DNA of 64,000 nucleotides, from the NCBI GenBank assembly GCA_021775875.1, contig JAJFHA010000011.1, positions 10,178 to 74,177 of the forward strand. Reading direction: 5' to 3'. Source of the stretch: Hyphomicrobiales bacterium (GTDB taxonomy: Bacteria; Pseudomonadota; Alphaproteobacteria; Rhizobiales; NORP267). The position numbers and the translations under genes were made by a program. This document shows, one piece after another, positions 2 to 15,352 of this stretch (position 1 is its first letter; every line of letters starts with the position of its first letter). The notes under the pieces are model-generated. The model was not told the origin of the DNA. It searched no databases and was given only the letters and a program-made list of their open reading frames with translations.

Positions 2-787
2 TCGGCTGGTTCGCTCGAAAGCCAGGCCCCGTCAGCAGCAAAGGGTGCGGTCGCGGGCAATGGCGAGAATGACGTGATGGAAGCCCGTCTGGCCTTCATC
101 CCGGAATATCGTGAATTGTTCGATACAGTATTTGGCGATGTATGGCCCAGGATAGACAATGCCTGGCGCGCGATAGCAGCCTTTGAACGCACACTCGTGC
201 AAACCGATACGCCATTGGATTTGTTTCTGCGAGGCGATGAAAATGCCCTGACCGAGCAGCAATTGCGGGGCAGAGAGCTATTCGAAGGCCGCGCTAATTG
301 TATCCAGTGCCACAACGGCGCCATGGCTACTGACGAGCGGTATTATAACCTTGGAGTTCCGCCTGCATTGCGCTGGGAAGAAGATGCTGCTGCTCAAATT
401 ACCTTCCGTTTTGAGCAGATTGCCAAAGGTGTGACCGAGGAACTTTATCGCGAGATCAAGGACGATGCCGGTCTCTATTATCGGACCAAAGAGGTGTCGG
501 ATATGGGCAAATTCCGCACCCCCAGTTTGCGCTATACCCTTTACACAGCGCCATACATGCATAACGGCGCTTTTTGGGATCTCACCGAAGTTGTCGAATT
601 CTACAACGAGGGCGGTGGCGAAAACGAATTTAGCGAAAATCGCACAGATTTGATCCAGCCGCTTGGTTTATCCGACGACGAAATTGAGGATCTAGTCGCC
701 TTCATCGAGGCGTTCAGCGGACCTGAGATCAGGATCGAAGTTCCCACATTGCCGCCGTACCAACCTTTGCCGAACCCGGCTGACTAA
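2..787 (+). CDS. Di-haem cytochrome c peroxidase / MauG family protein, C-terminal part (5' end lies outside the window)
   Basis: The frame is open from base 2, so the gene starts upstream of the window. It has the second haem motif CIQCHNG and the family-typical block FRTPSLRYTLYTAPYMHNGAFWDLTEVVEFYNEGGG. The stop lies 4 nt before the GGAGG of the next gene. Confidence 0.85.
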   Translation, partial: SAGSLESQAPSAAKGAVAGNGENDVMEARLAFIPEYRELFDTVFGDVWPRIDNAWRAIAAFERTLVQTDTPLDLFLRGDENALTEQQLRGRELFEGRANCIQCHNGAMATDERYYNLGVPPALRWEEDAAAQITFRFEQIAKGVTEELYREIKDDAGLYYRTKEVSDMGKFRTPSLRYTLYTAPYMHNGAFWDLTEVVEFYNEGGGENEFSENRTDLIQPLGLSDDEIEDLVAFIEAFSGPEIRIEVPTLPPYQPLPNPAD

Positions 788-804
788 ATTGGAGGTAATT
801 GCAG

Positions 805-1395
805 ATGAGTGAGAAGCAGAAAGTGTCAGCCGATCAACCACCGCAAGTGGATGCTGATCGCAAGAGCGGCGGTGGAAAATGCATGATGTCGCGCCGGGAT
901 TTCCTGCTCACCTCTGGGATGACCGTTGCAACGGTCATGGTCGTGATAAATGCGGGAACGTCCCAGGCGCATGAAATTCCTGGTGTAGTTTCTTCCTACC
1001 CGCGCAAATGGATTGCAAAATTAAGCGACCTCGTGGTCGATGAACCGGTCGATTTTCTCTACCCCGATGAAGGTGCCTATGCCGATTCCGTGATTGTGAA
1101 ACTCGGGGTCAGGGCCGGGAGTGGAATTGGCCCCACAGAAGATGTGGTTGCGTTCAACAACACCTGCACACATCAGGGCGGTCCGCTGTCGGGCACCTAC
1201 AAAGGCGACACGAAATCTCTGGGCGCCTGTCCGCTCCATCTATCGACTTACGATCTTACCCGTCACGGTATTCTCATCTCGGGACAGGCGTATCAGAGTT
1301 TACCGCAGGTTCTTCTCGAACTTGAAGGTGACGACATCTACGCGGTTGGCCTGTTCGGTCTGATTTTTGGTCGATACGACAATTTGCAAGGCTAG
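805..1395 (+). CDS. TAT-exported Rieske [2Fe-2S] small subunit of an AioB/IdrB-type molybdoenzyme
   Basis: GGAGG at 791-795 lies 9 nt before the ATG at 805. It has the twin-arginine motif SRRDFLL, the Rieske ligands CTH...CPLH, and a C-terminal block (QSLPQVLLELEGDDIYAVGLFGLIFGRYDN) that parallels my recollection of AioB. An alternative start at 883/886 (MMSRRDFLL) is possible. Confidence 0.85.
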   Translation: MSEKQKVSADQPPQVDADRKSGGGKCMMSRRDFLLTSGMTVATVMVVINAGTSQAHEIPGVVSSYPRKWIAKLSDLVVDEPVDFLYPDEGAYADSVIVKLGVRAGSGIGPTEDVVAFNNTCTHQGGPLSGTYKGDTKSLGACPLHLSTYDLTRHGILISGQAYQSLPQVLLELEGDDIYAVGLFGLIFGRYDNLQG

Positions 1396-1407
1396 GAGGT
1401 AGTTACC

Positions 1408-4083
1408 GTGTCAGCACCGTATTATATTCCCGAAATGGATGTCCCGCTGCCGCCGGCAAATGCGGAAATTGTCTCTACGGCCTGCGATTATTGTATCGTT
1501 GCATGCGGTTACAAGGTCTATCGTTGGCCTGTGGCAGGCAATTTAAACGGCGGTCCCGAGGCGGATAATAACGCTTTTGGCGAGGATTTCCCAGTCAATC
1601 CCCTTGGCCCTTGGGTTGCGCCCAACCAGCACAATATTGTGTTGCACAATAGCGAACCGCATCACGTTGTGATCATCCCGGACAAGGACACTCAGTCGGT
1701 TAATCTCAACGGAGATTCCAGCCTGCGTGGTGGCTGTATTGCCCAGAAATGCTACAATCCCCAAACCCCGACGCGCGATCGGTTGAGATCGCCTCTGATG
1801 CGGATCTACGGCATTCTTCAGCCAGTTCCATGGGATTTTGCGCTCGATGTAGCGGCGGAAATTGCTTCCTACGTGATCGAGAAGCACGGAGCCAGTTCGT
1901 ACGGCGTGAAAACCTTTTCCTATCAGTATATTGAGAACACTTACGCGATAACGAAGTACGCGCTCAGACACATCGGCACACCGAATTTTACCTTCCACGA
2001 CACGCCGTCTGATGTATCGTCGACGCCAGGTTTCCGGGATGCCGGTTTCGATAACTTTGCCGCATCCTACGAAGACTGGCGGGATGCTGAGACCTTGCTT
2101 ATCTGCGGCACCGACCCCTACGAGACCAAAACCATCCTGTGGACCCAATGGATTATGCCGGCCATTCAGGGCGGTCAGAAAACCATTCTGATGGTCCCAA
2201 GACGCACCGCAGGCGTAGCTTACGCGGAACAAAATGGCGGGATGTGGATCGATGTAACGCCTGGAACCGACCTTCTCGTTCTGAATGCCATCGCGCGTGT
2301 CATCGTGGAGAACGATTGGCAGGATAAGGAATGGATTGAAAACTGGGTGAACAATAAATGGGGATCCAGTTCCGGTTTCGGCCAGGGTACGCGGAATACC
2401 CCGTGGCAATGGCGCACCACCTGGGGCATGTTCCAGACCGACGGGTTTGAAGACTGGCGCAATTGGCTGCTGGCGCAGGACGAATTTACCGTTGAGAACG
2501 CTGCTGCAGTCTCGGGCGTGGATCCTGAAAAAATACGCACCGCTGCCGAGTGGATGGCCAAGCCAAAGGACGATGGCAGCCGTGTAAAAACCTCCGTCAT
2601 GATCGAAAAAGGACTGTATTGGTCAAACAATACAGGCACCACGCAATCCGTATCGGCGCTGGGTATTATTGTCGGTGCTGGCGGACGTCCGGGCCAGATG
2701 ATCAGCCGCGCTGGCGGCCATCAGCGTGGCGGCGTGCGCGGTGGCGGGTATCCACGAAATCTGTCGCCGATGAAATTACCCGGACGAAGGCGCCGGGCGC
2801 TGGATACCGATACCTGGCTCTATGCAGGTCATACCCGGATGGCGCACGTCATTGGAACGACCTGGATTCAGGCCATGTGCGGCTCCGAGCAGCTTAGCGT
2901 GGCATTTGAAAATCTGACTGTCGCCAATCCTCACCAGATACGGTCATACGACAAGGAAGACATCGTTGCGACCCTGAAAAAGCGCGCCGATAGCGGTGGA
3001 ATGGTGTTGATCAATCAGGATATCTATCTTGTGGACCCGATCGGCAATCGGTACGCAGATATAGTCTTTCCTGCGGCCACGTGGGGCGAAGAAACCTTCA
3101 TGCGCGCCAACGGTGAGCGGCGTTTGCGGCTCTATCCCAAATTTTACGACGCACCGGGTGAAGCTAAACCGGATTGGTGGATCATTGCGGAATTGTCAAA
3201 GCGTATGGGCTTTGACGGGTTCGATTGGGAAAACTCCAACGATGTGGCCGAAGAGGCTTCGCGCTTCTCCAGAGGCAGTCGCAAGGACTTCAACATGATC
3301 AAGGTTGCCGCCCACCGTGAAGGCAAAACCTTGCACGAAAAGTTGGGCGAGTTCGGTACTGACGGTATCCAGGGACCGGTGTTCATGCTGGATGATGGCA
3401 GTCTGGAAGGGACCGTACGGCTGCACGACACAACGCGCGAATTACCAGCCGAGGGACCGGCCGGCGGCAACATGTTCAACAAGAAATTGACCCACTTCAA
3501 CAGCCAGACGGGACGTTGCAACATTCAGAAGTCGCCCTGGTCGTTATTCTCGGACTATTGGGAGTGGCTGCAGCCCAAGGGTGATGAATTGTGGTGCACG
3601 TCCGGGCGGACCAACGAGCGTTGGCAGTCCGGTTTCGATGACCGCCGCAGACCTTATATCATGCAGCGTTGGCCCGAAAACTACGTTGAAATTCACCCCG
3701 ACGATGCCACCGAACGCGGCATTGAAAGCGGCGATATGGTCATGGCTTATTCCGACCGCGTGCCGAGTCTCAGGGAAACCACCATTGGCGTTGAGGCGTC
3801 GGACTATTCGTTCGCAGGCCAAATGGCGAATGGCAATGTGGAATTGTCCCGCGCCGCAGTTACCGGAGTAGCCATGGTGACGCGCCACATCAAAAAAGGC
3901 GTGATCTATATGGATTTCCTGCATCCGCAGCAACCGGCCAACGCCCTCCAGGGACGTATCGTTGACTGGATCAGTGGAAATTATAACTACAAAATGGGTG
4001 TCGCAAGCGTGCGCAAAATTGGCGTGTCGCCATACAAGGATAATTTGCGTTCGATGTCATTCGCACCCCGCGACATTATTTAG
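1408..4083 (+). CDS. Molybdopterin (DMSO-reductase superfamily) catalytic subunit with AioA/IdrA fold
   Basis: A GTG start follows AGGAGG (1394-1399). The N-terminus LPPANAEIVSTACDYCIVACGYKVYRWP matches the AioA-type C-x2-C-x3-C [3Fe-4S] motif region. Further blocks IIPDK, SSLRGG and AGGHQRGG line up by eye with AioA. It has no signal peptide of its own, consistent with hitch-hiking export on the TAT-Rieske partner. Confidence 0.9.
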   Translation: MSAPYYIPEMDVPLPPANAEIVSTACDYCIVACGYKVYRWPVAGNLNGGPEADNNAFGEDFPVNPLGPWVAPNQHNIVLHNSEPHHVVIIPDKDTQSVNLNGDSSLRGGCIAQKCYNPQTPTRDRLRSPLMRIYGILQPVPWDFALDVAAEIASYVIEKHGASSYGVKTFSYQYIENTYAITKYALRHIGTPNFTFHDTPSDVSSTPGFRDAGFDNFAASYEDWRDAETLLICGTDPYETKTILWTQWIMPAIQGGQKTILMVPRRTAGVAYAEQNGGMWIDVTPGTDLLVLNAIARVIVENDWQDKEWIENWVNNKWGSSSGFGQGTRNTPWQWRTTWGMFQTDGFEDWRNWLLAQDEFTVENAAAVSGVDPEKIRTAAEWMAKPKDDGSRVKTSVMIEKGLYWSNNTGTTQSVSALGIIVGAGGRPGQMISRAGGHQRGGVRGGGYPRNLSPMKLPGRRRRALDTDTWLYAGHTRMAHVIGTTWIQAMCGSEQLSVAFENLTVANPHQIRSYDKEDIVATLKKRADSGGMVLINQDIYLVDPIGNRYADIVFPAATWGEETFMRANGERRLRLYPKFYDAPGEAKPDWWIIAELSKRMGFDGFDWENSNDVAEEASRFSRGSRKDFNMIKVAAHREGKTLHEKLGEFGTDGIQGPVFMLDDGSLEGTVRLHDTTRELPAEGPAGGNMFNKKLTHFNSQTGRCNIQKSPWSLFSDYWEWLQPKGDELWCTSGRTNERWQSGFDDRRRPYIMQRWPENYVEIHPDDATERGIESGDMVMAYSDRVPSLRETTIGVEASDYSFAGQMANGNVELSRAAVTGVAMVTRHIKKGVIYMDFLHPQQPANALQGRIVDWISGNYNYKMGVASVRKIGVSPYKDNLRSMSFAPRDII

Positions 4084-4158: not shown

Positions 4159-6471
4159 ATGCCTGTTCCTAATACCGGTCTGTCATCAAAAAACACAGGC
4201 CCGGCTGCCAAAGCGGGCATTGTTGAGGTATGCTCAAACCTGAGTGAAGTTTTGCAGAACGGGGTGGATGTACACCGATGTTTTGCTGCCAAGGCTCTTG
4301 GAGAAATCGCAGAACCGCAGTCAGTCGATAGTCTGGTCCAGGCCTTGCTGGATGAAGACGAAGATGTGCGTACCGATGTTGCGAACGCTTTGGCGCGCAT
4401 CGGCGATCCCGGATCAGCCGGTCAACTGATCGAGAACTTGCTGGGTGATCCCTGCTGCGCCGTGAAACTGGCCGCGATTGATGCTCTGGTCGGCATGAAA
4501 CATGAAGCGGTAATCCCATGGCTGCGCCGTCTGGTTCATTGCCGCGATGAAGAAATATCTTGGGATGAAACCAGCTATTATATGGACGGTTGGGACGACT
4601 GGGCAGATATCCAGGTCAAATGCGTGGAAGCCCTGGGGGTATTGCACGTCGTAGAGGCCGTTGCGGACATCACGTCGGTTATAGACGATGAAGAAGGCCA
4701 GGATCTTACTGAAGTTGGCTTCAAGGCACTGGCTAATCTGGGTGCCTTTGGCGCGGCCGCCCTTAAAAAATATTTCGATACGGGTGACAATCGTCAACGC
4801 AGGCGGGCTATCGTGCATCTTGCCGCAATGGAGGGTGACGGGGCCGATGCAACCCTCTCGCGGGCTTTGGCGGACCCATCGAGTGACGTCAGATTGGCTG
4901 CTGTAAAATCATTGGCTGGAAAAAATCCGGCCGACAATCGACTGGCAGCTTTGTTCCAGGATTGCTCTCCCGAGGTCGGCGCAGCGGTCGTGAGCTTGTG
5001 CGGCCGCTACCACTTAACGGAGATAACTGCCATCGTCATGGATGAGACCGCTCTTAACCGCACGGCGGTATTCGAGTTGTTGGCACGTGAACCGGGGCTT
5101 GTTTTAGATGAAGACTGCGTTGAAAGCCTGCGCAGCGCAGCCAAATGTGCCGATAGAGAACAGGCCGGCGCGGCAATCAGAGCATATGCCCAAATCGCAC
5201 CCGAACAAGCCATCAATGAAATCGTTGAATTGTTGGGAGATGCGGCACATGTGGTGGAGGTGCGTTTTGCCTCACTGAAGGCATTGGCGAAATTGCCCGT
5301 GACGGAGAAAAACATCCGTGTGCTGGCGAACGTTTTAAGTGACGATAATCGCCAGCTTCGCCTCGAGGCCATGACAGTATTGGCCAATAAAGCAGCGTCG
5401 GAAAACTGGCCGAATTTGGCTGGCAAATTTCTGCTGGAAGCCTTGAACGGGGCCTTTGTTCCCGAGCCGGAAGACGGACGCGTCGCAGGTCCGGAAATAG
5501 CATCCAATACCGAGCTTGATGAGGAATTGGAGCAAGCGGTCGACGAAGCTGGCCAATCATCCGCGGCAAGTTCAGAATCCCCCGCATCCCCCTCAATCTT
5601 GTTGGAACCGGACGATAGCGCGGAAAATGGTGATGCATCACAAACCAACGGCGACGCTGCCGAATTCCCTACCTCAACGCTCGAAGCAATTCTTGGCGCA
5701 AATTCGCCGGGTCTTGAAGCTGCCAATTCTGCCGAAGATGATGTGACTTTGACAGAAGAGGATCTGGAATTCCTCAGTCTGTCAAAACGGGGGCCGAAAA
5801 AACGCCGGGTTTCGGTTTTGCCTGACGTGCCATTGCATCAGGATATTCCGCGATTTGCGGCAAGGGTTTTAGGCGATATTGCCCACGAAGACGTCGCACA
5901 CGCTTTGTCAAAAAAGCTATTTAGCGACGATGCGGATCTAACCAGGGCCGCGGCCGATTCCCTGGTTCAAATCGGTGAGAAACTGGGCGGACTGCCCAAC
6001 CAGGTGGTGCAAAATCTTCTGGCGGCTTCTTCCGCGGTCGATCTCGAATGCCGACGATCCATCGTCAGGGCGTTGGGTCTCTCGGGCAGCGGCGACGTGG
6101 TGATGAAGTTGGTTTCATGTTTGCATGACGAGAGCGGTTTTATTCGGGCAGAGGCCATTCGCGCGCTTACCCAATTGGGCGAAGCAGGACAGGGCATGAC
6201 GGCGATGCTTCAGGATTCGGATTCGAATGTTCGACTGGCCGCTGCTCAGGCGATCGCTGATCTGGATGAAGACGCCGCTCTGGAAAAGCTGGTGGATTTT
6301 GCATTCGCATTCAACGGCCATCATCGCAGGGCTGTCGGAAAAATGCTGCGTAAAATGGATGTTGAAACTGCCAATGCCCGTTTCATTCAGGTTCTTGGGC
6401 ATCCCGACAGAAAAAATGAATGGCAGGTCGTGATCGAGTCCCTGGAAGAACTCAATCGCGCCCGCATGTGA
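4159..6471 (+). CDS. HEAT-repeat (PBS-lyase/EZ-HEAT-like) protein with a central acidic/Ser-rich linker
   Basis: Many repeats of the form DxxVRxxAAxALGxIGD occur (e.g. DEDEDVRTDVANALARIGDP, DSDSNVRLAAAQAIADLDED). An approximately 105-aa low-complexity acidic segment (about 5461-5780) is followed by the basic patch KRGPKKRR. There is no signal peptide or TM helix. Confidence 0.7.
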   Translation: MPVPNTGLSSKNTGPAAKAGIVEVCSNLSEVLQNGVDVHRCFAAKALGEIAEPQSVDSLVQALLDEDEDVRTDVANALARIGDPGSAGQLIENLLGDPCCAVKLAAIDALVGMKHEAVIPWLRRLVHCRDEEISWDETSYYMDGWDDWADIQVKCVEALGVLHVVEAVADITSVIDDEEGQDLTEVGFKALANLGAFGAAALKKYFDTGDNRQRRRAIVHLAAMEGDGADATLSRALADPSSDVRLAAVKSLAGKNPADNRLAALFQDCSPEVGAAVVSLCGRYHLTEITAIVMDETALNRTAVFELLAREPGLVLDEDCVESLRSAAKCADREQAGAAIRAYAQIAPEQAINEIVELLGDAAHVVEVRFASLKALAKLPVTEKNIRVLANVLSDDNRQLRLEAMTVLANKAASENWPNLAGKFLLEALNGAFVPEPEDGRVAGPEIASNTELDEELEQAVDEAGQSSAASSESPASPSILLEPDDSAENGDASQTNGDAAEFPTSTLEAILGANSPGLEAANSAEDDVTLTEEDLEFLSLSKRGPKKRRVSVLPDVPLHQDIPRFAARVLGDIAHEDVAHALSKKLFSDDADLTRAAADSLVQIGEKLGGLPNQVVQNLLAASSAVDLECRRSIVRALGLSGSGDVVMKLVSCLHDESGFIRAEAIRALTQLGEAGQGMTAMLQDSDSNVRLAAAQAIADLDEDAALEKLVDFAFAFNGHHRRAVGKMLRKMDVETANARFIQVLGHPDRKNEWQVVIESLEELNRARM

Positions 6472-6534: not shown

Positions 6535-7269
6535 ATGAAGAATTTACTCAGAAGTTTTATTGTTGGTGCGGCGGTTCTGGCACTCGCTCCCGGCGCGCTG
6601 GCAAAGAATTATGAACCCGGTGATGTAGCCGATGGCGGCACGATTACAGGGCAGGTTTTGGCCGGTAATGCAGGAGCAGAAGTCCAATCTTATCCAATCA
6701 CCAAGAACACGGAAGTTTGCGGCGAGGGTAACCGCGACGTTGAATGGGTGCGGGTCAATGACGGCGCGTTGCTCGATACGGTTGTCTATCTAGTAGAAGT
6801 GGAATCCGGAAAGGCTTTCACAGAAGAATCCCAGACCCTGTCTCTCGACCAGGACGGCTGCCGCTTCGCGCCTTATATGAGCGCAATGGCCAATAGCGGC
6901 GATTTGCATGTTACCAATTCCGACCAGGCGCTCCACAACATTCATACCTATGAACTGATCGGCAGCGCCCGGCGGACAGTCATCAACGTAAGCCAACCCG
7001 AGGCGGGTACCGAGTTCACCAAGACAATCAGACTGCGCAGGGGCAATGCAATGAAAGTCGAATGCGATGCCCATGATTTTATGCACGCATGGGTGTTTGT
7101 CGCCAAAAATCCATATTACGCAATCGTCGACGAGAATGGCCAGTTCAGTCTGGATAATGTTCCTCCAGGTACCTACGAAATCAGGTCATGGAATGGCCGT
7201 CTTGGAGAACAGGAAGCGACCGTGGAAGTTGGTGCGAACGGCTCGGTTGAAGTAAATTTTTCCTACTAG
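6535..7269 (+). CDS. Secreted cupredoxin-like protein with a C-terminal carboxypeptidase-regulatory-like beta-sandwich
   Basis: GGAGGA lies 7 nt upstream of the ATG. It has the signal peptide MKNLLRSFIVGAAVLALAPGALA. The ligand pattern HNIH...C-D-A-H-D-F-M (C-x2-H-x2-M, the spacing seen in amicyanin) is present. The tail IVDENGQFSLDNVPPGTYEIRSWNGRLG is typical of CarboxypepD_reg-like domains. Confidence 0.6.
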   Translation: MKNLLRSFIVGAAVLALAPGALAKNYEPGDVADGGTITGQVLAGNAGAEVQSYPITKNTEVCGEGNRDVEWVRVNDGALLDTVVYLVEVESGKAFTEESQTLSLDQDGCRFAPYMSAMANSGDLHVTNSDQALHNIHTYELIGSARRTVINVSQPEAGTEFTKTIRLRRGNAMKVECDAHDFMHAWVFVAKNPYYAIVDENGQFSLDNVPPGTYEIRSWNGRLGEQEATVEVGANGSVEVNFSY

Positions 7270-7449: not shown

Positions 7450-9135
7450 ATGTCTGGGAGTTTTCTGCAGCAGTCAGCACTCGTGATGCCGGAAGGTGAT
7501 GCTGAGCGTTTTGATACTGCTCCGGTTTCGCTAAAGCGGATATTGGTAGCGTTGGATGCTTCCGTCTACGCTAACCATGCCTTGGTTGAGGCGACAAAAT
7601 TAGCCGGATCTGCCAATGGTGTAGTTACCGGAATCCACGCTTATGCGGCAAAACTCCACGACAATCGATTTCGTCAGATGGAAGGCGGCCTGCCTGAAAA
7701 ATATCGCCAGGAAGATGAAATGGAGCGCCAACGCGGCGTCCATGATGACCTCATCACACGTGGCCTAGGCATCATCAGCGATAGCTACCACGACGAAGCC
7801 GAGAAGGTCTGCGCTGCGGCCGGAATTCCCTACCAGCGGCTCAATCCTGAAGGAAAAAACTATCGCCGTATCGTCGAGGCGACTGAGACCGGCAATTTCG
7901 ATGTTCTGGCGCTGGGTGCCCAGGGACTTGGAGTCGTGTCGGGCAGCATTCTTGGCACAGTATGCCAGCGCGTCGTGCGTCGTTCGCCCATTGATGTGCT
8001 GGTCATCAGGGACGCTGATCGGACCATTGGTGACGGGCCCCTGGTCGTGGCCCTGGACGGTTCACAACGCTCCTTTGGCGTGCTGATGACCGCGCTCGAT
8101 CTTGCCCGCCGTGTTGATGCAGAAGTGCACGCGGTTGCGGCATACGACCCGTATTTTCACTATGTTGCCTTTGACAAGATCGCCGACACCTTGAGCGAGG
8201 AAGTCAGCAATGAGTTTCGTTTTCAGGAGCAGGAACAACTGCACGAGGAAATTATCGACGCAGGTATCGCTAAAATTTACCAGTCTCATCTTGAAATTGC
8301 AGAGACAATCGCGAAGGAGGCGGGTGCCAACCTTGCTTGCAAGCTTCTCGACGGCAAACCTTATCACGCGATCGCGCAATATGTTGAGCAGGTTGGTGCC
8401 AGCTTGCTCCTGATGGGAAAGACTGGAATTCATGCCGATGCCGATTTGGATATAGGCGGGAATACGGAAGTACTTTTGAGAACAGCCCCGTGCCATGTCT
8501 GGATTGGCAACGCGACATATACACCGAGAAGTGATCTGGTGGCCCAGGAAACCATCGTCTGGACCGAAGAAGCTGAAGAAATAATGACAAGGGTGCCTGA
8601 GACCGCGCTTGGCATGGTGCGTATGGCGGTTTTGCGGATCGCCCAGGAGAGCGGCCACACAGTCATCACTTCGGCCCTGATCGAGGAAGCAACCAACCGG
8701 TTTTGTCCTGATCGGGGTGGTGTAATGCCAGGTGCTGAAGAACCAGTGAAATGGACGGATGCGGCCACGGATATGGTCAAGAATCTTGGCGATCCCGGCC
8801 TCGCAAAATCGGTGCGTCTGAGCGCTGAAAAACGGGCACGCCGCGAGAAATCAGATGCTGTCGAATCCCACCACGTCACGCCGTTCATCGAGCATTCGGA
8901 CGCTGCCAATCTGAAATGGAACGCGGCGGCGCTGGCGCGGTTGGCGCAGGTCCCGCAGATGGTGCGCGGCTCTCTCCGGGTGCGCATTGAAGCCCATGCC
9001 AACGAAGCGGAATTGATTGAAATTGATGCCGATACGGTCGAGATTATGATCAAGGAAGCCCGCCAGGTCATGAATGAGACGATGCGGACAGGAGGGCACC
9101 CGGATAATGGTGACGCGAGCGATGGCAATGCCTGA
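7450..9135 (+). CDS. Tandem universal-stress-protein (UspA) domains fused to two or three PCP_red-like (BchB/ChlB C-terminal-like) repeats
   Basis: GGGGGA lies 5 nt before the ATG at 7450; the longest ORF starts at TTG 7396. There are two USP-like halves (ILVALDAS...VLVIRD and LVVALDGS...HVWIG). The C-terminal repeats are VWTEEAEEIMTRVPETALGMVRMAVLRIAQESGHTVIT and LKWNAAALARLAQVPQMVRGSLRVRIEAHANEAEL. Confidence 0.7.
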   Translation: MSGSFLQQSALVMPEGDAERFDTAPVSLKRILVALDASVYANHALVEATKLAGSANGVVTGIHAYAAKLHDNRFRQMEGGLPEKYRQEDEMERQRGVHDDLITRGLGIISDSYHDEAEKVCAAAGIPYQRLNPEGKNYRRIVEATETGNFDVLALGAQGLGVVSGSILGTVCQRVVRRSPIDVLVIRDADRTIGDGPLVVALDGSQRSFGVLMTALDLARRVDAEVHAVAAYDPYFHYVAFDKIADTLSEEVSNEFRFQEQEQLHEEIIDAGIAKIYQSHLEIAETIAKEAGANLACKLLDGKPYHAIAQYVEQVGASLLLMGKTGIHADADLDIGGNTEVLLRTAPCHVWIGNATYTPRSDLVAQETIVWTEEAEEIMTRVPETALGMVRMAVLRIAQESGHTVITSALIEEATNRFCPDRGGVMPGAEEPVKWTDAATDMVKNLGDPGLAKSVRLSAEKRARREKSDAVESHHVTPFIEHSDAANLKWNAAALARLAQVPQMVRGSLRVRIEAHANEAELIEIDADTVEIMIKEARQVMNETMRTGGHPDNGDASDGNA

Positions 9136-10438
9136 CCCTGTCGAAACACCGTTCCTCGTCGCCCTCAACCTGACGCGCCGCTGCAATCTGAAATGTGCCC
9201 ATTGCTATCTTGATGCAGGCATGAGGCGAAACGGCGAACCGGGAGAACTCGAAACTCAGGAAGTTTTCAATCTACTCGACGATATTGCCGCTTTGAGCGA
9301 CGAAACCATGGTTGTGGTGACTGGCGGGGAGCCGTTGTTACGGCTGGATATTCTTGAAATTTGCAGCCACGCATCCGGTCTCGGGCTGATGGTGGTGATG
9401 GGCACCAACGGCACCCTTCTCGACAAGAAACGCGTTCAGGAATTGCAAAATGCAGGGGTCAGGGCCGTCGGGATAAGCCTTGATTCATTGAGGCCCGAAT
9501 ACCATGACGATTTTCGCGGTGTAAAAGATGCGTGGGCGCAAACCATGAGCGGGATCGACAATTGCCGCGAAGCTGGTCTGATGTTCCAGGTTCATTTCTC
9601 GGTCACCGACGAAAATGCCCATGAGATCGACGACATTATCGATTTCGTACGCTCGGTCGGCGGGTCCGTTCTCAATTTTTTCTTTCTGGTCTGCACGGGA
9701 CGCGGCGAAACCTTTTCCAAAATATCGAGCAATGTTTATGAAGCTTCGCTCAGGCGGATCGCAGAAGCCGCCGCCGCGGAAACCGAGCTTCTTATCCGCG
9801 CCCGATGCGCCCCGCATTTTAAGCGCATGGCGCTCGAAATGCAGTCCCGCCTGCAAGTGACCCAGCTTGATGGCTACGAGGCCGGGGGGTGCCTTGCTGG
9901 CACGCATTATTGCCGGGTTACGCCCCACGGGAGAATTACACCATGCCCGTATATGGAAATCTCAGCGGGTTCTATCCGTGAGCAGGATTTTGCCACCGTC
10001 TGGCGCGACGCCCCGTTATTCGAAAAATTCCGCAATCCGAAGTTGGAGGGACGTTGCGGGGAATGCGAATTTTCAAAATTGTGCGGAGGGTGCAGGGCGC
10101 GGCCGTATGCGCGCGACGGCAATCTGATGGGTGAGGATTTTTTGTGCGAGTATCAGCCAGCGGGCGGTGCCGTCATTGAACCATATCTTCCGAAAGCTGG
10201 GGTTGTACCCTGGAGCCCGGAGGCCGAGGAGCGCCTTCAACGCGTCCCGTCCTTCGTGCGCCGTTTTGTCCGTCTGCGCGCGGAAACCCACGTTCATGAG
10301 GTAGGTGAAACCACCGTCACAGTGGAGCATTTGAAGACCCTGGCAAAGCGCCGGTTTGGCGAGGCCGGACCGCCCCTGGGAGGGTTCCCGGACATTATTC
10401 GGAACGTGGACACAACCAATATAAAGCGAAACCACTAA
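9107..10438 (+). CDS. Radical SAM/SPASM enzyme of the AhbC/AhbD/NirJ tetrapyrrole-modifying type with a C-terminal PCP_red domain
   Basis: The C-x3-C-x2-C motif CNLKCAHC lies at 9182-9205. Family-like blocks include VVTGGEPLL, FFFLVCTGRG and ARCAPHF. A Cys-rich SPASM region is present (CGECEFSKLCGGCRARPY). The tail is VPWSPEAEERLQRVPSFVRRFVRLRAETHVHEVGETTVTVEHL. The start is ambiguous (9074, 9107, 9122 or 9128) and overlaps the end of the upstream gene. Confidence 0.85.
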   Translation: MVTRAMAMPDPVETPFLVALNLTRRCNLKCAHCYLDAGMRRNGEPGELETQEVFNLLDDIAALSDETMVVVTGGEPLLRLDILEICSHASGLGLMVVMGTNGTLLDKKRVQELQNAGVRAVGISLDSLRPEYHDDFRGVKDAWAQTMSGIDNCREAGLMFQVHFSVTDENAHEIDDIIDFVRSVGGSVLNFFFLVCTGRGETFSKISSNVYEASLRRIAEAAAAETELLIRARCAPHFKRMALEMQSRLQVTQLDGYEAGGCLAGTHYCRVTPHGRITPCPYMEISAGSIREQDFATVWRDAPLFEKFRNPKLEGRCGECEFSKLCGGCRARPYARDGNLMGEDFLCEYQPAGGAVIEPYLPKAGVVPWSPEAEERLQRVPSFVRRFVRLRAETHVHEVGETTVTVEHLKTLAKRRFGEAGPPLGGFPDIIRNVDTTNIKRNH

Positions 10439-11853
10439 TGTACGATGCTGCGGTCATAGGCGGTGGCATATCGGGCCTCGCTGCGGCCTACGAGCTGCAG
10501 AAATCAGGATACAAGGTTGTCGTCATCGAGCGCCAGGTCAGGGTAGGAGGCAAAGCCCATACGGGGAATCTGAATGGATTTTTGATGGAATATGGCGCAA
10601 GTTCGATCAATGGAGCGTCAATCAGAGCTTCTGCATTCTCAACCGAACTTGGCCTTGACGGCGAGCGTTGCCAATTGGGACCAGACGTTCGCAAGCGGTA
10701 TCTTATCAAGAACGGTCGTTTGAACGGGATTGCCAAACATCCGTTTGGTTTTTTGACGTCCAGCTATCTCTCCCTGCCATCGCGTCTCAGGCTTCTGACA
10801 GAAATTTTCCGGTCTGCCGGACCAGACAACGAAGAGACGGTGGCCGAATTCTGCACCCGCCGCTTTGGCAGGGAATTTTCTGCGCGTATCATCGACCCGC
10901 TGATTGGTGGGTTATTTGCCGCCCGCGCGACCGAACTGTCATTGTCGGCGGTTTTCCCTAAATTGCAGTCATTTGAAAAGCAATACGGATCGGTCACGAT
11001 GGGTGCGATCCGGCGGCGGATGGAGGGCAACAAGATGCCCGCCCGCCTGCTCTATTCATGGCAGCGCGGGATCGGCGCATTGCCGAACGCTCTCGCAGGG
11101 CAACTTGGTTCAAACATCAAAACCGGAATCACCGTCCGGGGTATCGATGCGTTGCGTCAAGGATATCGCCTCAAGTTTGCTGGTGGTGGGTCGCTGGATG
11201 CGCGTTCGGTCATTGTCGCGACGCAGCCTCACGTTACAGCTGACCTCCTGCAATCGCTCGATCTGGAAGCAGCAGAAGCAGCCGCCGAAATTCACGCGCC
11301 CCCAATCACCGTCATCTTTATGGGGTTCCGCCGTGAGGATGTTGATCATCCCCTCGACGGCATTGGGTCCCTGTCACCGGAGAGCGAGAAAAGGACGCTG
11401 TCTGGGATATTGTTCCCAACGACCATGTTTCCCGGACGGGCGCCCGAAGGCTGTGTTTCGCTGTCGGGCTATATTGCCGGCGCCCGGTCTCCGGATTTGG
11501 TGAAATTGCCGCTTGAAGACCAGGCGGCTTTGGCACGAGAAGAATTTCGCCATTTGCTGGGCGTCAGGGGAGAACCCCTTGTCACGCGCGTACACCATTG
11601 GCATCGCGGATTGCCCCAGGCGCGCATCGGCCACGGGAGATTGATATCGAAATTCTCCGAACTTGAATCCCGGCGACCAGGAATGTTTGTTACAGGAAAT
11701 TATTTCTCAAGTCCCTCGATCGCAAATTGTGTTGAAACGGCCAGAGAGACGGTGGCCCGTGTTGCGCAATTCCTGGGAGCACAGGAAAATACCAGCAGAG
11801 AAAACGAGACGGGCGGCGTGAGGTTCACTGCTTCGGGGACCGGGCAAAAATGA
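10438..11853 (+). CDS. FAD-dependent protoporphyrinogen/coproporphyrinogen oxidase-like flavoprotein (HemY/CgoX family)
   Basis: The N-terminal dinucleotide fold is AAVIGGGISGLAAAYEL...ERQVRVGGK. The overall length and the C-terminal block GMFVTGNYFSSPSIANCVETA are typical of the PPOX family. The start overlaps the radical SAM stop (TAATG). Confidence 0.8.
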   Translation: MYDAAVIGGGISGLAAAYELQKSGYKVVVIERQVRVGGKAHTGNLNGFLMEYGASSINGASIRASAFSTELGLDGERCQLGPDVRKRYLIKNGRLNGIAKHPFGFLTSSYLSLPSRLRLLTEIFRSAGPDNEETVAEFCTRRFGREFSARIIDPLIGGLFAARATELSLSAVFPKLQSFEKQYGSVTMGAIRRRMEGNKMPARLLYSWQRGIGALPNALAGQLGSNIKTGITVRGIDALRQGYRLKFAGGGSLDARSVIVATQPHVTADLLQSLDLEAAEAAAEIHAPPITVIFMGFRREDVDHPLDGIGSLSPESEKRTLSGILFPTTMFPGRAPEGCVSLSGYIAGARSPDLVKLPLEDQAALAREEFRHLLGVRGEPLVTRVHHWHRGLPQARIGHGRLISKFSELESRRPGMFVTGNYFSSPSIANCVETARETVARVAQFLGAQENTSRENETGGVRFTASGTGQK

Positions 11854-12197
11854 ACCTTGCGCAAGACCCAGACAGTGTCAGATCCAGATCGACGGGCAAA
11901 GGATTCCTGGGGCTTTTCGTAATGTTTGCGGTTACTGCACTGATCCTGAGATTTGTTTTCAGCAGTGCCGAATATTACGGGGATCAAGTTGGACTGGCGA
12001 GATATTGTGGTGATCCGGTTGCAACAATTGACAGGGTCAAAATGATACTTGCCTCGGATATTCCGAGCGACGGTAATGAGCGACGGCCCTACATTGTAGC
12101 TGCAAAATTGCTGTATCTGGTCCCCCAACTGCACGATGAGACCATAGAAGCCTATTCGGTGAGGCTCCTCGAAGAAATCGAGGAAAGATGCCGGTAG
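11850..12197 (+). CDS. Hypothetical N-terminally membrane-anchored protein
   Basis: It overlaps the PPOX-like gene by ATGA. It has one TM helix (GFLGLFVMFAVTALILRFVF). I recognise no family. Confidence 0.5.
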   Translation: MNLAQDPDSVRSRSTGKGFLGLFVMFAVTALILRFVFSSAEYYGDQVGLARYCGDPVATIDRVKMILASDIPSDGNERRPYIVAAKLLYLVPQLHDETIEAYSVRLLEEIEERCR

Positions 12198-12218: not shown

Positions 12219-14501
12219 TTACTTCAAATCTTGGCTGGACTGGTAAATGCGTCTTTGACGACGTGCCGCAAACAGGAACAATAGACCGGCCAAAGCTCCG
12301 CCCAATCCAGAGTAACCATAGACCCTCAATGGCTGTTCATCCTGCTGCAATAACAGCCAATACCACGACGTCATCGAGTGCCGGCTGCCTTGTTGCCCGG
12401 CCCAGCCATCCCAGTTGGCAAAAGCAACGGGGATGTACCGCCCGACTTCGAATTGCAGATCTCGGCCATCTTCGGTTTCCAAAGGCCGCGTGAATACAAT
12501 TCGCCACATTCCGTTTTCCCAAGCGCCGCTGCCCGCAAGGTCGCCAATCTCAGGGCGATGGGTCGGCGGCTCATCCGGGCCAGTTGCGTCCATAAGAGCT
12601 ACCTGCTGGGGGTTCCCTGCCTCTTGGTTGGGTGCTCGCCAATACCACATGTTTACCCCGTGCCCGGGATCGCCATGGCGGAACCAGGGCCTCTCGCTGG
12701 TGACTGGAATTTCGATTGGGAACTGGATCGCGGCAGCATCCGGCGTTGGCGTGAACTGGTCGTCGCGATACGGAACCTCTTCGGTTGCTCCTGGAACCGA
12801 GAAACTGCGGTCATCGATATCAAGACGCAACGCGATATCGTCCACATTGTATAGCGCACGCACCGTTACAGTATCGTTGAGTGAATAATAAAGTCGCTCG
12901 CCCTTGATGACGTTGGGGGCAAAAGGAAATGTGATGGCCGGTGCCTCGTCCCATCGCGGGTCGTTCGGGTCATCGGGCAACGCCCCGTCCACACGCAACG
13001 CGCGGATAACCGTCTCCCCGATTGTTACCGGGTTCGAATTGTCGCGCAGAGTCATTGCGTAATTGGCAATGTCCCAACGCTCGTCTTCCGACATTGTCGT
13101 CGTATGCTCCGGCATCGGCGTGCCACGGATGCCGCCACTGATCCGTTGGAAAATGTCCTCGGCATCGAGTGTGGCGCGCCAGGTTTCCGGCCTTGTAAGA
13201 TTGCGCGGCCATATCCTGTCCTGCCAGTCATCTCTAAGCACTTTGCCCGAAGTTACATTGCCGCGCCCTTCGGTCCCGTGGCATTGTACACACGCCTTTA
13301 CAAACAGTTCAGCTCCCCGGCTTAAGGAATCAGTATTGCTTTCCACGCGTACGCCCATTTCCATCGGCAGGGTCCCGAGATCTTCTTCGGCTTCCCCGTC
13401 CCAATAACCGAATTCACGAATGAGCGTTACCAACCCGTCGATTTGTGGCGCGGTCAGCACTTCACCCCACGCCGGCATGGATGTGCCCGGCAGGCCGTCG
13501 CGGATTGTGGCGGCGATATCTGTATCAAACGGGAATTCGGAATCTGCGGCACTGGTTTTGTATTTGAAAACCCCAAGCGTAAAATCCCGTGGCCTGGGAT
13601 AAAGAAATTCCGCAGCCGGTCCGTCGCCTTCACCTTCCGAACCATGGCACTGAGCGCAGCGTGTGTCATAGACCTGGCGTATGGGGTCCTGGTCCGAGGT
13701 CGTAACAGGTACTTCCGTCTGCCCAGACGCACCTTGTTCCTCAAGCTCCCACGATCTCGGTTCATATCCGGTATAATCATAGAGGAAAGAAATGATCTTC
13801 CAGATTTCCTCTTCACTCAGAATCTCGTGCCAGACCGGCATGGCGGATGCCCACGGCGCACCTTCTCGCGGCAGACCCGGGGCACCGGTGGCGATGCGCC
13901 AGAACAGATAAGATTCCTGAAGTTGGGCGATCGTTCCCACATCCTGAAAATTTGCCGGGCGTGGATTGAAGGCTGCGCCAAGATGTCCTTGCCCGTCGAG
14001 ATTGTCGCCATGGCAAAAGACACAATTCTCGTAATACAGGCTCCGGCCTTCCGCGATCATTTCAATGTAAGCATCGCTCCCGCCCGGCATCGTTTCGCGC
14101 AGGGGATTTTGCAGCGTCGCCAGGTCATAAGTGTTTCCATATATCCTAAGCGACGACGGTGGTGCCGGATGTACGGTCCTCAACTCAATCGGCGCATCGC
14201 TCCCAGGCTTCACCCACAGGTAGGTGAGGCCACTGGCCAGAGCGACAATTCCCAAAAATGAGCATAAACGAAGAATCCTGAAACCGGGCGCACCAAGAAC
14301 GAGGTGAAACGGATTGAGGAACCTCGCAAATGTTTCATCGTCAAACGACACGACCAGCAATATCCCGACCACGCAAATTACCATGAATTGAATCAGGAGC
14401 GTGACCGGTACGGGAGGTGAAATCACATAGGCAAAGAGCACGTATAATCCGGCGACCACCAGGCAGGATACAAAGAGGGGATGCGTTATGAAGCGTTTCA
14501 T
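12219..14501 (-). CDS. Membrane-anchored tri-haem cytochrome c fused to an EB_dh-like (ethylbenzene dehydrogenase gamma / DOMON-like haem-binding) domain
   Basis: It has three CxxCH motifs (CVFCHG, CAQCHG, CVQCHG). It has N-terminal TM helices and a C-terminal TM helix (GALAGLLFLFAARR). The C-terminal third (PNDPRWDEAPAITFPF...VRALYNVDDIALRLDIDD...GVNMWYWRA...ANWDGWAGQQGSRHSMTSWYWLLL) resembles EB_dh domains. The start MKRFITHP overlaps the upstream stop by ATGA; the longest ORF runs to 14567. Confidence 0.8.
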   Translation of the reverse strand: MKRFITHPLFVSCLVVAGLYVLFAYVISPPVPVTLLIQFMVICVVGILLVVSFDDETFARFLNPFHLVLGAPGFRILRLCSFLGIVALASGLTYLWVKPGSDAPIELRTVHPAPPSSLRIYGNTYDLATLQNPLRETMPGGSDAYIEMIAEGRSLYYENCVFCHGDNLDGQGHLGAAFNPRPANFQDVGTIAQLQESYLFWRIATGAPGLPREGAPWASAMPVWHEILSEEEIWKIISFLYDYTGYEPRSWELEEQGASGQTEVPVTTSDQDPIRQVYDTRCAQCHGSEGEGDGPAAEFLYPRPRDFTLGVFKYKTSAADSEFPFDTDIAATIRDGLPGTSMPAWGEVLTAPQIDGLVTLIREFGYWDGEAEEDLGTLPMEMGVRVESNTDSLSRGAELFVKACVQCHGTEGRGNVTSGKVLRDDWQDRIWPRNLTRPETWRATLDAEDIFQRISGGIRGTPMPEHTTTMSEDERWDIANYAMTLRDNSNPVTIGETVIRALRVDGALPDDPNDPRWDEAPAITFPFAPNVIKGERLYYSLNDTVTVRALYNVDDIALRLDIDDRSFSVPGATEEVPYRDDQFTPTPDAAAIQFPIEIPVTSERPWFRHGDPGHGVNMWYWRAPNQEAGNPQQVALMDATGPDEPPTHRPEIGDLAGSGAWENGMWRIVFTRPLETEDGRDLQFEVGRYIPVAFANWDGWAGQQGSRHSMTSWYWLLLQQDEQPLRVYGYSGLGGALAGLLFLFAARRQRRIYQSSQDLK

Positions 14502-15352
14502 TGGACGGCCTCGCCGGCTCCAAGCGCGATCAGATAATCGACAACCAGTTCCAGCTCGCTCGCCCACATCTGCTCAGCGTAATCTGGCGGCATGAAGTCG
14601 GCTTCATAGCCATCCGCAATCTCGGCATTGGGGTCAATGATAGCTGCCCTGAGTTGATGGCGCTGCATTTGCTGCACGGTCTCAGCAAGATCGGGGCCGA
14701 TATCGGCTCCCGACCCGAACAGATCATGACACCCGGCACAGCCGAGATTGGCGATGATATCCTCCGCCGAGGTCAAAGGCCACACGTCTTCCGAGGGCGT
14801 CTCCTCAACATTTGCACTCTCGACGGCATCTGCTGCCGACGGCAGCGCAACTGTTACCTCGAAACCTGCCAGATCCTGCAAAAAGCCGATAAGCGCGTCT
14901 GTTTCCGTTGCCGATAAGGAAATTGGCGCAGCATCTACGCGCGGCATCGGGCTTTCAGTATCGTTGGTCCCCTTTTTCCCGAATCCGTCGACAACAAAAG
15001 CGGACGGATCGATCATGGATTCACGTAGATAAATTTCAATTGCAGCCGCACCACTTAACCCTGCAGCGGCCCCTGCATAGCGTTGATCGGCAATGCGCTC
15101 AGGAAGCGTCGCTGCCAGATCCAGTTCGAGTAGATCGGGCGCCCGGCCCAGATTGTTATGGCAAAGCGTGCAGGTGCCCTGGCCTTCGAACAGGCGTCGG
15201 CCCCAGGCAATCTGTCCGGCTACATCTAGGGAACTTTCATCGATCTCCTCGGTTTGCGGCGGATCGGATTGTACCTGGGGCAGAATATTCGCAAATATCG
15301 TAAAGGCGAACATAATCGCCAGGCTGAAAACAGTGATCCGGAGAAGGGTCAT
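14498..15352 (-). CDS. Di-haem c-type cytochrome, N-terminally anchored or secreted
   Basis: It has two CxxCH motifs (CTLCHN, CAGCHD) and a hydrophobic N-terminus (LLRITVFSLAIMFAFTIFANI). It overlaps both neighbouring genes by ATGA. Confidence 0.8.
   Translation of the reverse strand: MTLLRITVFSLAIMFAFTIFANILPQVQSDPPQTEEIDESSLDVAGQIAWGRRLFEGQGTCTLCHNNLGRAPDLLELDLAATLPERIADQRYAGAAAGLSGAAAIEIYLRESMIDPSAFVVDGFGKKGTNDTESPMPRVDAAPISLSATETDALIGFLQDLAGFEVTVALPSAADAVESANVEETPSEDVWPLTSAEDIIANLGCAGCHDLFGSGADIGPDLAETVQQMQRHQLRAAIIDPNAEIADGYEADFMPPDYAEQMWASELELVVDYLIALGAGEAVQ

Follow-up and report, generated by a model that had tools for sequence, protein, structure and literature searches.

In 2021, the iodate reductase subunit IdrA was defined as a clade of its own, with the corresponding gene cluster found in 145 genomes that included those of Alphaproteobacteria, and it was proposed that the IdrAB enzyme converts iodate to HIO while the accompanying peroxidases act as detoxifiers (PMC8692401). 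In 2024, three aerobic marine Alphaproteobacteria (Roseovarius azorensis, Notoacmeibacter marinus as well as Aliiroseovarius sediminilitoris) were shown to reduce iodate in static growth, under which condition iodate raised expression of the idr genes by 59- to 102-fold, and IdrA was identified in an activity-stained gel band (PMC11445184). Subsequently, in 2026, IdrA sequences from metagenome-assembled genomes (MAGs) of oxygen minimum zones, assigned to Alphaproteobacteria and SAR324, were reported to form a clade distinct from that of the isolates, and expression of the idrABP1P2 genes of an alphaproteobacterial MAG (Fu_MAG_99) in Escherichia coli was found to raise iodate reduction (PMC13455634). 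The subject of the present analysis is a stretch of 64,000 nucleotides (hereafter, ‘the window’) from a Hyphomicrobiales bacterium (NCBI GenBank assembly GCA_021775875.1, contig JAJFHA010000011.1, positions 10,178 to 74,177 of the forward strand), at the beginning of which genes for a peroxidase, a Rieske protein and a molybdoenzyme occupy positions 2-4083. With a probability of roughly 85%, these genes are the 3' end of an Idr-type iodate reductase cluster (idrP2-idrP1-idrB-idrA) carried on the chromosome of a marine alphaproteobacterium. Because the clade was catalogued in 2021 and iodate reduction was shown in 2024 and 2026, the locus is an addition to a marine alphaproteobacterial idr type that is already known, and is not new in kind.

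The core genes and their order

The three core genes in the window are as follows.

2-787, plus strand: idrP1 homologue, 3' part (261 of 379 codons); Pfam CCP_MauG, E 9e-14
805-1395, plus strand: idrB, small subunit of 196 residues, a Rieske [2Fe-2S] protein exported by twin-arginine translocation (Tat); TIGR02694, Pfam Rieske and TAT_signal
1408-4083, plus strand: idrA, catalytic molybdopterin subunit of 891 residues with a [3Fe-4S] cluster; identified by Pfam domains, motif, tree and hidden Markov model (HMM)

A preliminary description of this DNA had recognised an AioB-type Tat-Rieske subunit and an AioA-fold catalytic subunit with a C-x2-C-x3-C motif, tightly packed behind a gene for a di-haem peroxidase, and all three genes were indeed found on the same strand at these positions, separated by gaps of 17 and 12 nucleotides. 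The E-values of the core-gene matches range from 1e-33 to 0, so that chance is not an issue for these assignments. Within the window, the peroxidase gene retains only the second of its CxxCH motifs (CIQCH), while the first motif, the remainder of the 5' end of idrP1 and the whole of idrP2 lie upstream of the first window base. The di-haem character of the protein was therefore confirmed solely on a public contig of 27.7 kb (L001) that carries identical genes, including one for an identical 891-residue protein, and on which the full-length idrP1 (1919-3058) encodes two CxxCH motifs and a Sec-type N-terminus. This peroxidase displays 51% identity to the Rieske-proximal peroxidase of Azonexus hydrophilus NCP973, and the two proteins share the same pattern of NCBIfam matches, in which the MbnH score exceeds the MauG score.

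The small subunit contains a Tat motif (SRRDFLL) and a Rieske signature of the form CxHx18Cx2H (CTH-x18-CPLH), scores 113.8 bits on TIGR02694 (cut-off 95.65), and has identities of 53% to Azonexus IdrB and of 42% to the AioB protein of NT-26. The reading frame of idrA begins at a GTG codon that is preceded by an AGGAGG ribosome-binding site, and its product harbors the Pfam domains Rieske_3 (3Fe-4S), Molybdopterin and Molydop_binding, together with an intact [3Fe-4S] motif (C26-x2-C29-x3-C33-x70-S104). The motifs that have been given for the Idr proteins of Azoarcus DN11, namely CX2CX3CX70S for IdrA and CXHX18CX2H with a Tat signal for IdrB (PMC10149662), are thus all present in the window proteins. 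No signal peptide was predicted in IdrA, and since IdrB carries a Tat signal the catalytic subunit is presumably co-exported with its partner. The ratio of nonsynonymous to synonymous substitution rates (dN/dS) of idrA, relative to its orthologue in the nearest genome (a Hyphomicrobiales MAG, L005), is approximately 0.03, and the idr genes are under purifying selection.

The prediction that a second peroxidase gene would be found upstream of the first window base was borne out on contig L001, in which two complete peroxidase-like genes (788-1903 and 1919-3058), each encoding two CxxCH motifs and a Sec-like N-terminus, precede the Rieske gene; the order of the cluster is thus peroxidase, peroxidase, idrB, idrA (P-P-B-A). 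The same order is implied by the locus tags of Denitromonas IR-12, in which 00684 and 00685 denote peroxidases, while 00686 and 00687 denote the small and large subunits, respectively (PMC8692401, Table S2), and was also seen directly on a plasmid of A. hydrophilus NCP973, an isolate that has been shown to respire iodate (PMC13455634). The accessions of the Azoarcus DN11 genes are ordered A, B, P1, P2 (PMC10149662), and the Rieske-proximal gene is accordingly named idrP1 here and the distal one idrP2, a naming that is itself derived from that accession order. The conservation of this arrangement was assessed in a survey of related loci, comprising the 80 closest, each at least 75% identical in IdrA, of at least 587 species-genome matches; denominators vary with the available sequence, being 66 loci with sufficient upstream sequence, 70 with at least 3 kb downstream of idrA, and 46 for the remaining counts of flanking genes. 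In 66 of 66 loci, P2, P1 and B were found before idrA.

Placement of the catalytic subunit outside the arsenite oxidases

The sequence of the window IdrA protein is approximately 30% identical to the AioA proteins of NT-26, Thermus and Ralstonia, 50% identical to NCP973 IdrA, 64% identical to a Vibrio homologue, 76% identical to a protein of Ruegeria halocynthiae DSM 27839, 81% identical to that of Arabian12_MAG_54, and 89% identical to that of L005. R. halocynthiae has been listed among the holders of the idr island (PMC8692401, Table S3). A phylogeny, which had been suggested for this protein in maximum-likelihood form, was built by neighbour joining (44 sequences, 798 columns, 200 bootstraps, with supports given for unrooted splits). 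The window protein is not nested within AioA: it falls in an alphaproteobacterial clade with 100% support, which joins the Vibrio sequences (100%), and these together with the NCP973 group (itself 100%) and a peroxidase-linked sequence, P0123, form an Idr clade with 99% support, while the AioA group, with 100% support, excludes it. A fragment of a peroxidase gene adjoins the Rieske gene of P0123, and no peroxidase gene was found near the next clades out, P0124 and P0130, a pattern that agrees with the published view that peroxidase adjacency delimits the Idr clade (PMC8692401).

The window protein scores 1144 bits against an Idr HMM and 496 bits against an AioA HMM, the former being a surrogate built for this analysis from 120 NCP973-type sequences rather than the IdrA HMM of Reyes-Umana et al., for which the criterion is at least 640 bits. 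Around the molybdenum site, the AioA loops IHNRPAYNSE and GGHQEGY correspond to FHDTPSDVSS and GGHQRGG in the window protein. The substrate pocket of AioA is taken here to comprise His195, Glu203, Arg419 and His423 (A. faecalis numbering, from the literature on structure 1G8K). The equivalent window residues are H197, S205, R434 and H438, such that Glu203 is replaced by serine and the other three are kept.

The large subunit also scores 409 bits on the arsenite oxidase model TIGR02693 (cut-off 359), but because the NCBIfam library contains no Idr model, passes on TIGR02693 and TIGR02694 do not separate Idr from Aio. Public records give relatives of the window proteins the names ‘arsenate reductase (azurin)’ or ‘arsenite oxidase’, and these arsenic labels are explained by the acceptance of IdrA and IdrB above the cut-offs of the two models in a library that offers no Idr alternative.

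The genomic surroundings point in the same direction as the tree. The absence of aioXSR, ars and pst neighbours noted in the preliminary description holds for all 64 kb and for the 3.6 kb of upstream sequence shown by L001; within the window, phn and chlorite dismutase (cld) genes were likewise not found. In contrast, the four aio loci that were inspected (those of NT-26, Ralstonia, Thermus and Cytobacillus) all have aioXSR, ars or pst-type neighbours. A chlorite-dismutase-like gene, which had been suggested as a feature to look for upstream, is present neither in the window nor on L001, in agreement with the published conclusion that cld is not part of the idr island (PMC8692401). The remaining genes of the window are chromosomal housekeeping genes (ppx, rlmE, guaB, guaA, bamB, der, purF, radA, alr, dnaB, fab genes and lptDFG). 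Scans of the window for promoters and terminators performed no better than those of shuffled sequence, and no tRNA or Rfam family was found in it.

Taken together, the second peroxidase gene, the P-P-B-A order, the position in the Idr clade outside AioA and the lack of arsenic genes nearby support the earlier view that the enzyme is of the Idr type and not a classical arsenite oxidase. The alternative then offered, of a third and uncharacterised clade, stands in part: the marine Alphaproteobacteria and Vibrio do form a branch distinct from the iodate respirers of the beta and gamma classes, but that branch is not uncharacterised (PMC8692401, PMC11445184, PMC13455634).

Among distant homologues collected along the way, three proteins of 1,100-2,100 residues (P0190, P0139 and P0165) contain an N-terminal AioA/IdrA-like module (3Fe-4S, Molybdopterin, Molydop_binding), which is fused to LodA-like lysine-oxidase domains in P0190 and to a flavin amine oxidase in P0139, and is accompanied by no extra domain in P0165.

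Conserved neighbours of the cluster

The genes that follow idrA in the window are listed below in order of position.

4159-6471, plus strand: HEAT-repeat protein, 770 residues; Pfam HEAT_2, E 7e-50
6535-7269, plus strand: periplasmic cupredoxin-like protein, 244 residues, with a C-terminal prealbumin-like beta-sandwich; predicted from fold and ligands
7450-9135, plus strand: protein with tandem Usp and two PCP_red domains; Pfam
9107-10438, plus strand: radical SAM/SPASM protein of AhbD/NirJ2 type with a C-terminal PCP_red domain; TIGR04055 322 bits and TIGR04545 311 bits, both below cut-offs, and Pfam
10438-11853, plus strand: homologue of HemY-type protoporphyrinogen/coproporphyrinogen oxidase; TIGR00562 269.6 bits (cut-off 97.85)
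12219-14567, minus strand: tri-haem cytochrome c fused to an EB_dh-type (DMSO-reductase type II gamma-like) haem-b domain, 782 residues; three CxxCH, Pfam Cytochrom_C and EB_dh, TIGR03477 90.9 bits
14498-15352, minus strand: di-haem c-type cytochrome, 284 residues; two CxxCH, Pfam Cytochrom_C
15349-17307, minus strand: membrane protein resembling cytochrome bd subunit I; Pfam Cyt_bd_oxida_I, E 1.4e-15

The HEAT-repeat protein has an acidic, low-complexity middle region and no signal peptide. Among the 70 loci for which 3 kb or more of sequence beyond idrA is available, 68 encode a homologue of 730-770 residues immediately downstream of that gene, and the Vibrio and Azonexus loci lack one; in alphaproteobacterial idr clusters, the HEAT-repeat gene is a conserved fifth member. 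The protein evolves much faster than IdrA, with 57% identity between the window and L005 orthologues as compared to 89% for the catalytic subunit, and one might guess that it serves in assembly, maturation or export.

The 244-residue protein encoded by the next gene is Sec-exported and bears only the name ‘hypothetical’ in databases. A putative ligand set (His134 and Cys177-x2-His180-x2-Met183) is invariant in 55 homologues, and an AlphaFold2 model built with the alignment of those 55 sequences reached a predicted local distance difference test (pLDDT) score of 91, as compared to 33 from the single sequence. Foldseek matched this model to plastocyanin, amicyanin, pseudoazurin and Cupredoxin_1, with target template-modelling (TM) scores of 0.67-0.77 for amicyanin, plastocyanin and Cupredoxin_1. 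Pfam, searched at E-values of up to 1, returned no cupredoxin family and recognised the C-terminal domain only; a PDB profile search likewise matched only the C-terminal beta-sandwich, and hhalign gave a probability of 2.3% against the pseudoazurin-type proteins described below. The protein therefore appears, from its modelled fold and predicted copper ligands, to be a cupredoxin, and to belong to an unnamed two-domain blue-copper family tied to idr clusters.

A gene of cupredoxin type lies within the flanks of 39 of 46 loci, encoding the 244-residue form found in the window in 24 of them and a 161-residue pseudoazurin-type form in the other 15. The latter form, in which H72, C110, H113 and M118 are invariant, occurs mostly in Ruegeria, where its gene is followed by moeA, as well as in Vibrio, Roseibium and others, and takes the slot of the two-domain protein of the window; examples include L075 (14050-14535), L002 (9753-10196, minus strand), L059, L064, L067 and L080. 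The homologue beside idrA at the Vibrio locus lies outside the tally of 39. Azonexus and NT-26 have a gene for a small cytochrome c, rather than for a cupredoxin, next after that of the large subunit. No report of idrA paired with a pseudoazurin or cupredoxin was found in the literature searched, and both the HEAT-repeat and the cupredoxin neighbours of idr look undescribed. The 244-residue protein is proposed to be an electron donor to IdrAB.

The three subsequent genes on the plus strand (7450-11853), which overlap one another, look like an oxygen-independent tetrapyrrole-modifying set, and 9 of the 46 loci have this Usp-PCP_red, radical SAM and HemY trio next to idr. An unassigned open reading frame of 115 codons (11850-12197) follows the HemY-type gene.

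The minus-strand genes (12219-17307) form an operon, in which the bd-like membrane protein, whose true start codon probably lies downstream of 17307, is a candidate quinol dehydrogenase. Genes homologous to it adjoin idr in 21 of the 46 loci, and homologues of the three operon members (bd-like protein, di-haem cytochrome, tri-haem/EB_dh protein) do so in 13-21 of 46, in either orientation. Orthologues of the tri-haem/EB_dh protein, with 54-62% identity, adjoin idr in related loci and are mostly found directly upstream of idrP2. The cupredoxin-like gene of locus L020 is immediately followed by a bd-like gene and a pair of cytochrome c genes. Relative to L005, dN/dS for all of these accessory genes is well below 1, with dS saturated.

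Upstream of the cluster, the related loci offer several further observations. An IS3-type transposase fragment (308-493) is all that precedes the two peroxidase genes on L001, and in L005 a tRNA-Leu(taa) gene (5516-5602) is located approximately 500 base pairs upstream of idrP2. These two features hint that the idr cluster is a mobile island; idr has already been viewed in that manner in published work, which the tRNA-Leu of L005 fits. In one alphaproteobacterial subgroup, represented by L020 (4404-5594, and 2632-4050 on the minus strand), a BTAD/Trans_reg_C regulator gene lies just upstream of idrP2, and beyond it are genes for a NapC/NirT tetrahaem quinol dehydrogenase and a di-haem cytochrome c. 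In the window, no regulator gene adjoining the idr cluster was seen.

A proposed pathway for iodate reduction, and its rivals

The substrate and products that would apply to the window enzyme, its location in the periplasm and its response to iodate and low oxygen (induction) are taken from the literature on its relatives. In such a scheme, IdrB (bearing its Rieske 2Fe-2S cluster and Tat signal) would carry IdrA, with its 3Fe-4S cluster and Mo-bis-pyranopterin, into the periplasm; electrons would then pass from the Rieske cluster by way of the 3Fe-4S cluster to molybdenum, where IO3- would be reduced to HIO, as in published models, and onward to iodide. The two di-haem peroxidase-like proteins would remove H2O2 or other by-product oxidants. 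The conserved neighbours suggest that IdrB may receive its electrons from the quinol pool by way of the bd-like protein, then c-type cytochromes and the type-1 copper protein, that the cytoplasmic HEAT-repeat protein could aid the assembly or export of Idr, and that the haem-related trio might support cofactor supply under hypoxia. By analogy with R. azorensis, oxygen limitation is probably the condition in which the enzyme works, and it may serve as an electron sink rather than as a support of anaerobic growth.

The genes conserved around idr also allow a broader proposal, in which the functional unit of these bacteria would be an extended module comprising idrP2P1BA, an obligatory HEAT-repeat partner and a dedicated blue-copper donor (either the two-domain cupredoxin or pseudoazurin), often with its own bd-like quinol dehydrogenase and c-type cytochromes. 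This proposal is tentative, and is held with distinctly less than even confidence. If true, iodate reduction in Alphaproteobacteria of the oxic ocean would be connected to the quinol pool by a route that bypasses the bc1 complex and cytochrome c551, and would be copper-dependent, mirroring the role of azurin as a partner of arsenite oxidase.

Several considerations weigh against the assignment of the locus to iodate reduction, or limit its reach. The joining of the marine and NCP973 branches to the exclusion of P0123 received only 65% neighbour-joining support. Azonexus NCP973 (50% identity), together with lists and descriptions of clades in the literature, provides the link to tested enzymes, rather than the sequences of strains SCT, IR-12 or R. 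azorensis; and because the alphaproteobacterial active-site loop (HDTPSDVSS) differs from that of the NCP973 type (HDKCSATND), the same substrate specificity is not guaranteed. Islands of the beta type have a pair of sigma-54 regulator and histidine kinase that the present locus lacks. Anaerobic growth on iodate was not seen in the aerobic alphaproteobacterial isolates, and extracts of R. azorensis displayed a methyl-viologen activity of less than 0.1 U/mg (PMC11445184), while in the heterologous experiment the E. coli control alone reduced approximately 28% of the iodate (PMC13455634). The roles suggested for the cupredoxin, bd-like and HEAT-repeat proteins rest on gene neighbourhood and predicted fold.

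Some of these same points bear on an alternative that is considered unlikely, namely that the protein is an Idr-like enzyme whose main substrate or role is other than dissimilatory iodate respiration, be it the reduction of some other oxyanion (bromate or chlorate, for instance), or a redox-balancing or detoxifying reduction of iodate without energy conservation. Such a role would accord with the divergent active-site loop; with the replacement of the sigma-54 two-component pair and small cytochrome c by a HEAT, cupredoxin and bd-like module; with the failure of the tested aerobic Alphaproteobacteria to grow anaerobically on iodate, the authors themselves having suggested a role as electron sink (PMC11445184); and with the low activity of extracts. 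However, idrA of R. azorensis is induced by 0.1 uM iodate and its product is found in an iodate-dependent activity band (PMC11445184), the conversion of iodate to iodide was stoichiometric after heterologous expression of an alphaproteobacterial cluster (PMC13455634), and there is no evidence for another substrate.

Less probable still is a divergent arsenite oxidase (AioBA) that would oxidise As(III) and pass the electrons to a periplasmic cupredoxin or cytochrome, to which the scores of both subunits above the NCBIfam cut-offs (TIGR02693 and TIGR02694), the arsenite oxidase names of close relatives in the sources, the AioA-like fold and cofactor motifs with three of four pocket residues kept (H197, R434 and H438), and a cupredoxin neighbour reminiscent of azurin as the AioAB partner would lend themselves, but the equivalog matches are non-discriminating in a library without an Idr model, and the protein is only some 30% identical to structurally solved AioA, falls outside the AioA group (100%), scores 496 versus 1144 bits, has serine for Glu203 and QRGG for QEGY, is without the aioXSR, ars and pst genes that accompany the four aio loci inspected, and comes from a cluster to which two peroxidase genes are always attached, as they are not in aio loci (PMC8692401).

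Significance for marine iodine and arsenic inventories

When iodate is reduced to iodide in seawater, the process feeds the flux of iodine from sea to air, and ozone chemistry. The central result described here, an Idr-type cluster on the chromosome of one more uncultured marine alphaproteobacterium, is confirmatory, and the interest of the locus lies mainly in its undescribed conserved accessory genes and in the fact that IdrA is systematically mislabelled as arsenite oxidase. A relative of IdrA is encoded by at least 587 species genomes of the collection scanned, in many cases probably under an arsenic-type label; as a consequence of such mislabelling, inventories of the arsenic cycle in marine metagenomes are inflated and those of the iodine cycle undercounted. 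The pattern of accessory genes (the HEAT-repeat gene in 68 of 70 loci, a cupredoxin in 39 of 46, and the bd-like and cytochrome genes in about half) provides testable candidates for the electron donor and an assembly factor of Idr, in the organisms that are most relevant to the surface ocean and to oxygen minimum zones.

Comparison with known systems

The arsenite oxidases of Pseudorhizobium banfieldiae NT-26 and Alcaligenes faecalis (PDB 4AAY and 1G8K) share with the window proteins a two-subunit architecture, fold, cofactors and an order of genes in which the small subunit precedes the large, as well as the lack of a protein ligand to molybdenum and, as predicted for the window, a small periplasmic redox partner. 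They differ in sequence (with identities of approximately 30%) and in clade, in the retention of Glu203, in their arsenic sensing and resistance genes, in having no attached peroxidase genes, and in the direction of catalysis, which for the window enzyme would be reductive by analogy with its relatives.

The iodate-respiring isolates (Pseudomonas sp. SCT, Denitromonas iodatirespirans IR-12, Azoarcus sp. DN11 and Azonexus NCP973) are closer. They have in common with the window locus the P2-P1-B-A order, the Tat-Rieske subunit, the CX2CX3CX70S motif, and a pair of di-haem peroxidase-like proteins that are Sec-exported and show the same pattern of HMM matches, and all belong to one clade that excludes AioA. 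The differences are those between a marine alphaproteobacterial and Vibrio branch and a branch of beta and gamma classes, with approximately 50% identity in IdrA (NCP973 being the sole one of these strains compared). The loop at the molybdenum site is HDTPSDVSS in the window and HDKCSATND in NCP973; idrA is followed by genes for a small cytochrome c and MoaA in NCP973 and by the HEAT-repeat and cupredoxin genes in the window; and the sigma-54 regulator and histidine kinase genes that lie upstream in islands of the beta type have no counterpart here.

The closest correspondence is to the alphaproteobacterial Idr systems, comprising the aerobic marine isolates (PMC11445184) and Fu_MAG_99, with which the window shares the same set of four genes, host class and type of habitat, and an IdrA of similar size (~99 kDa, 891 residues). 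The window protein groups at 100% with alphaproteobacterial IdrA sequences that include those of Ruegeria halocynthiae and of Arabian12_MAG_54, the name of which follows the series of the 2026 study. As compared to these systems, the accessory set of the window is unusually full, bringing together the HEAT-repeat protein, the two-domain cupredoxin-like protein, the Usp, radical SAM and HemY trio, and the bd-like and cytochrome genes at a single locus.

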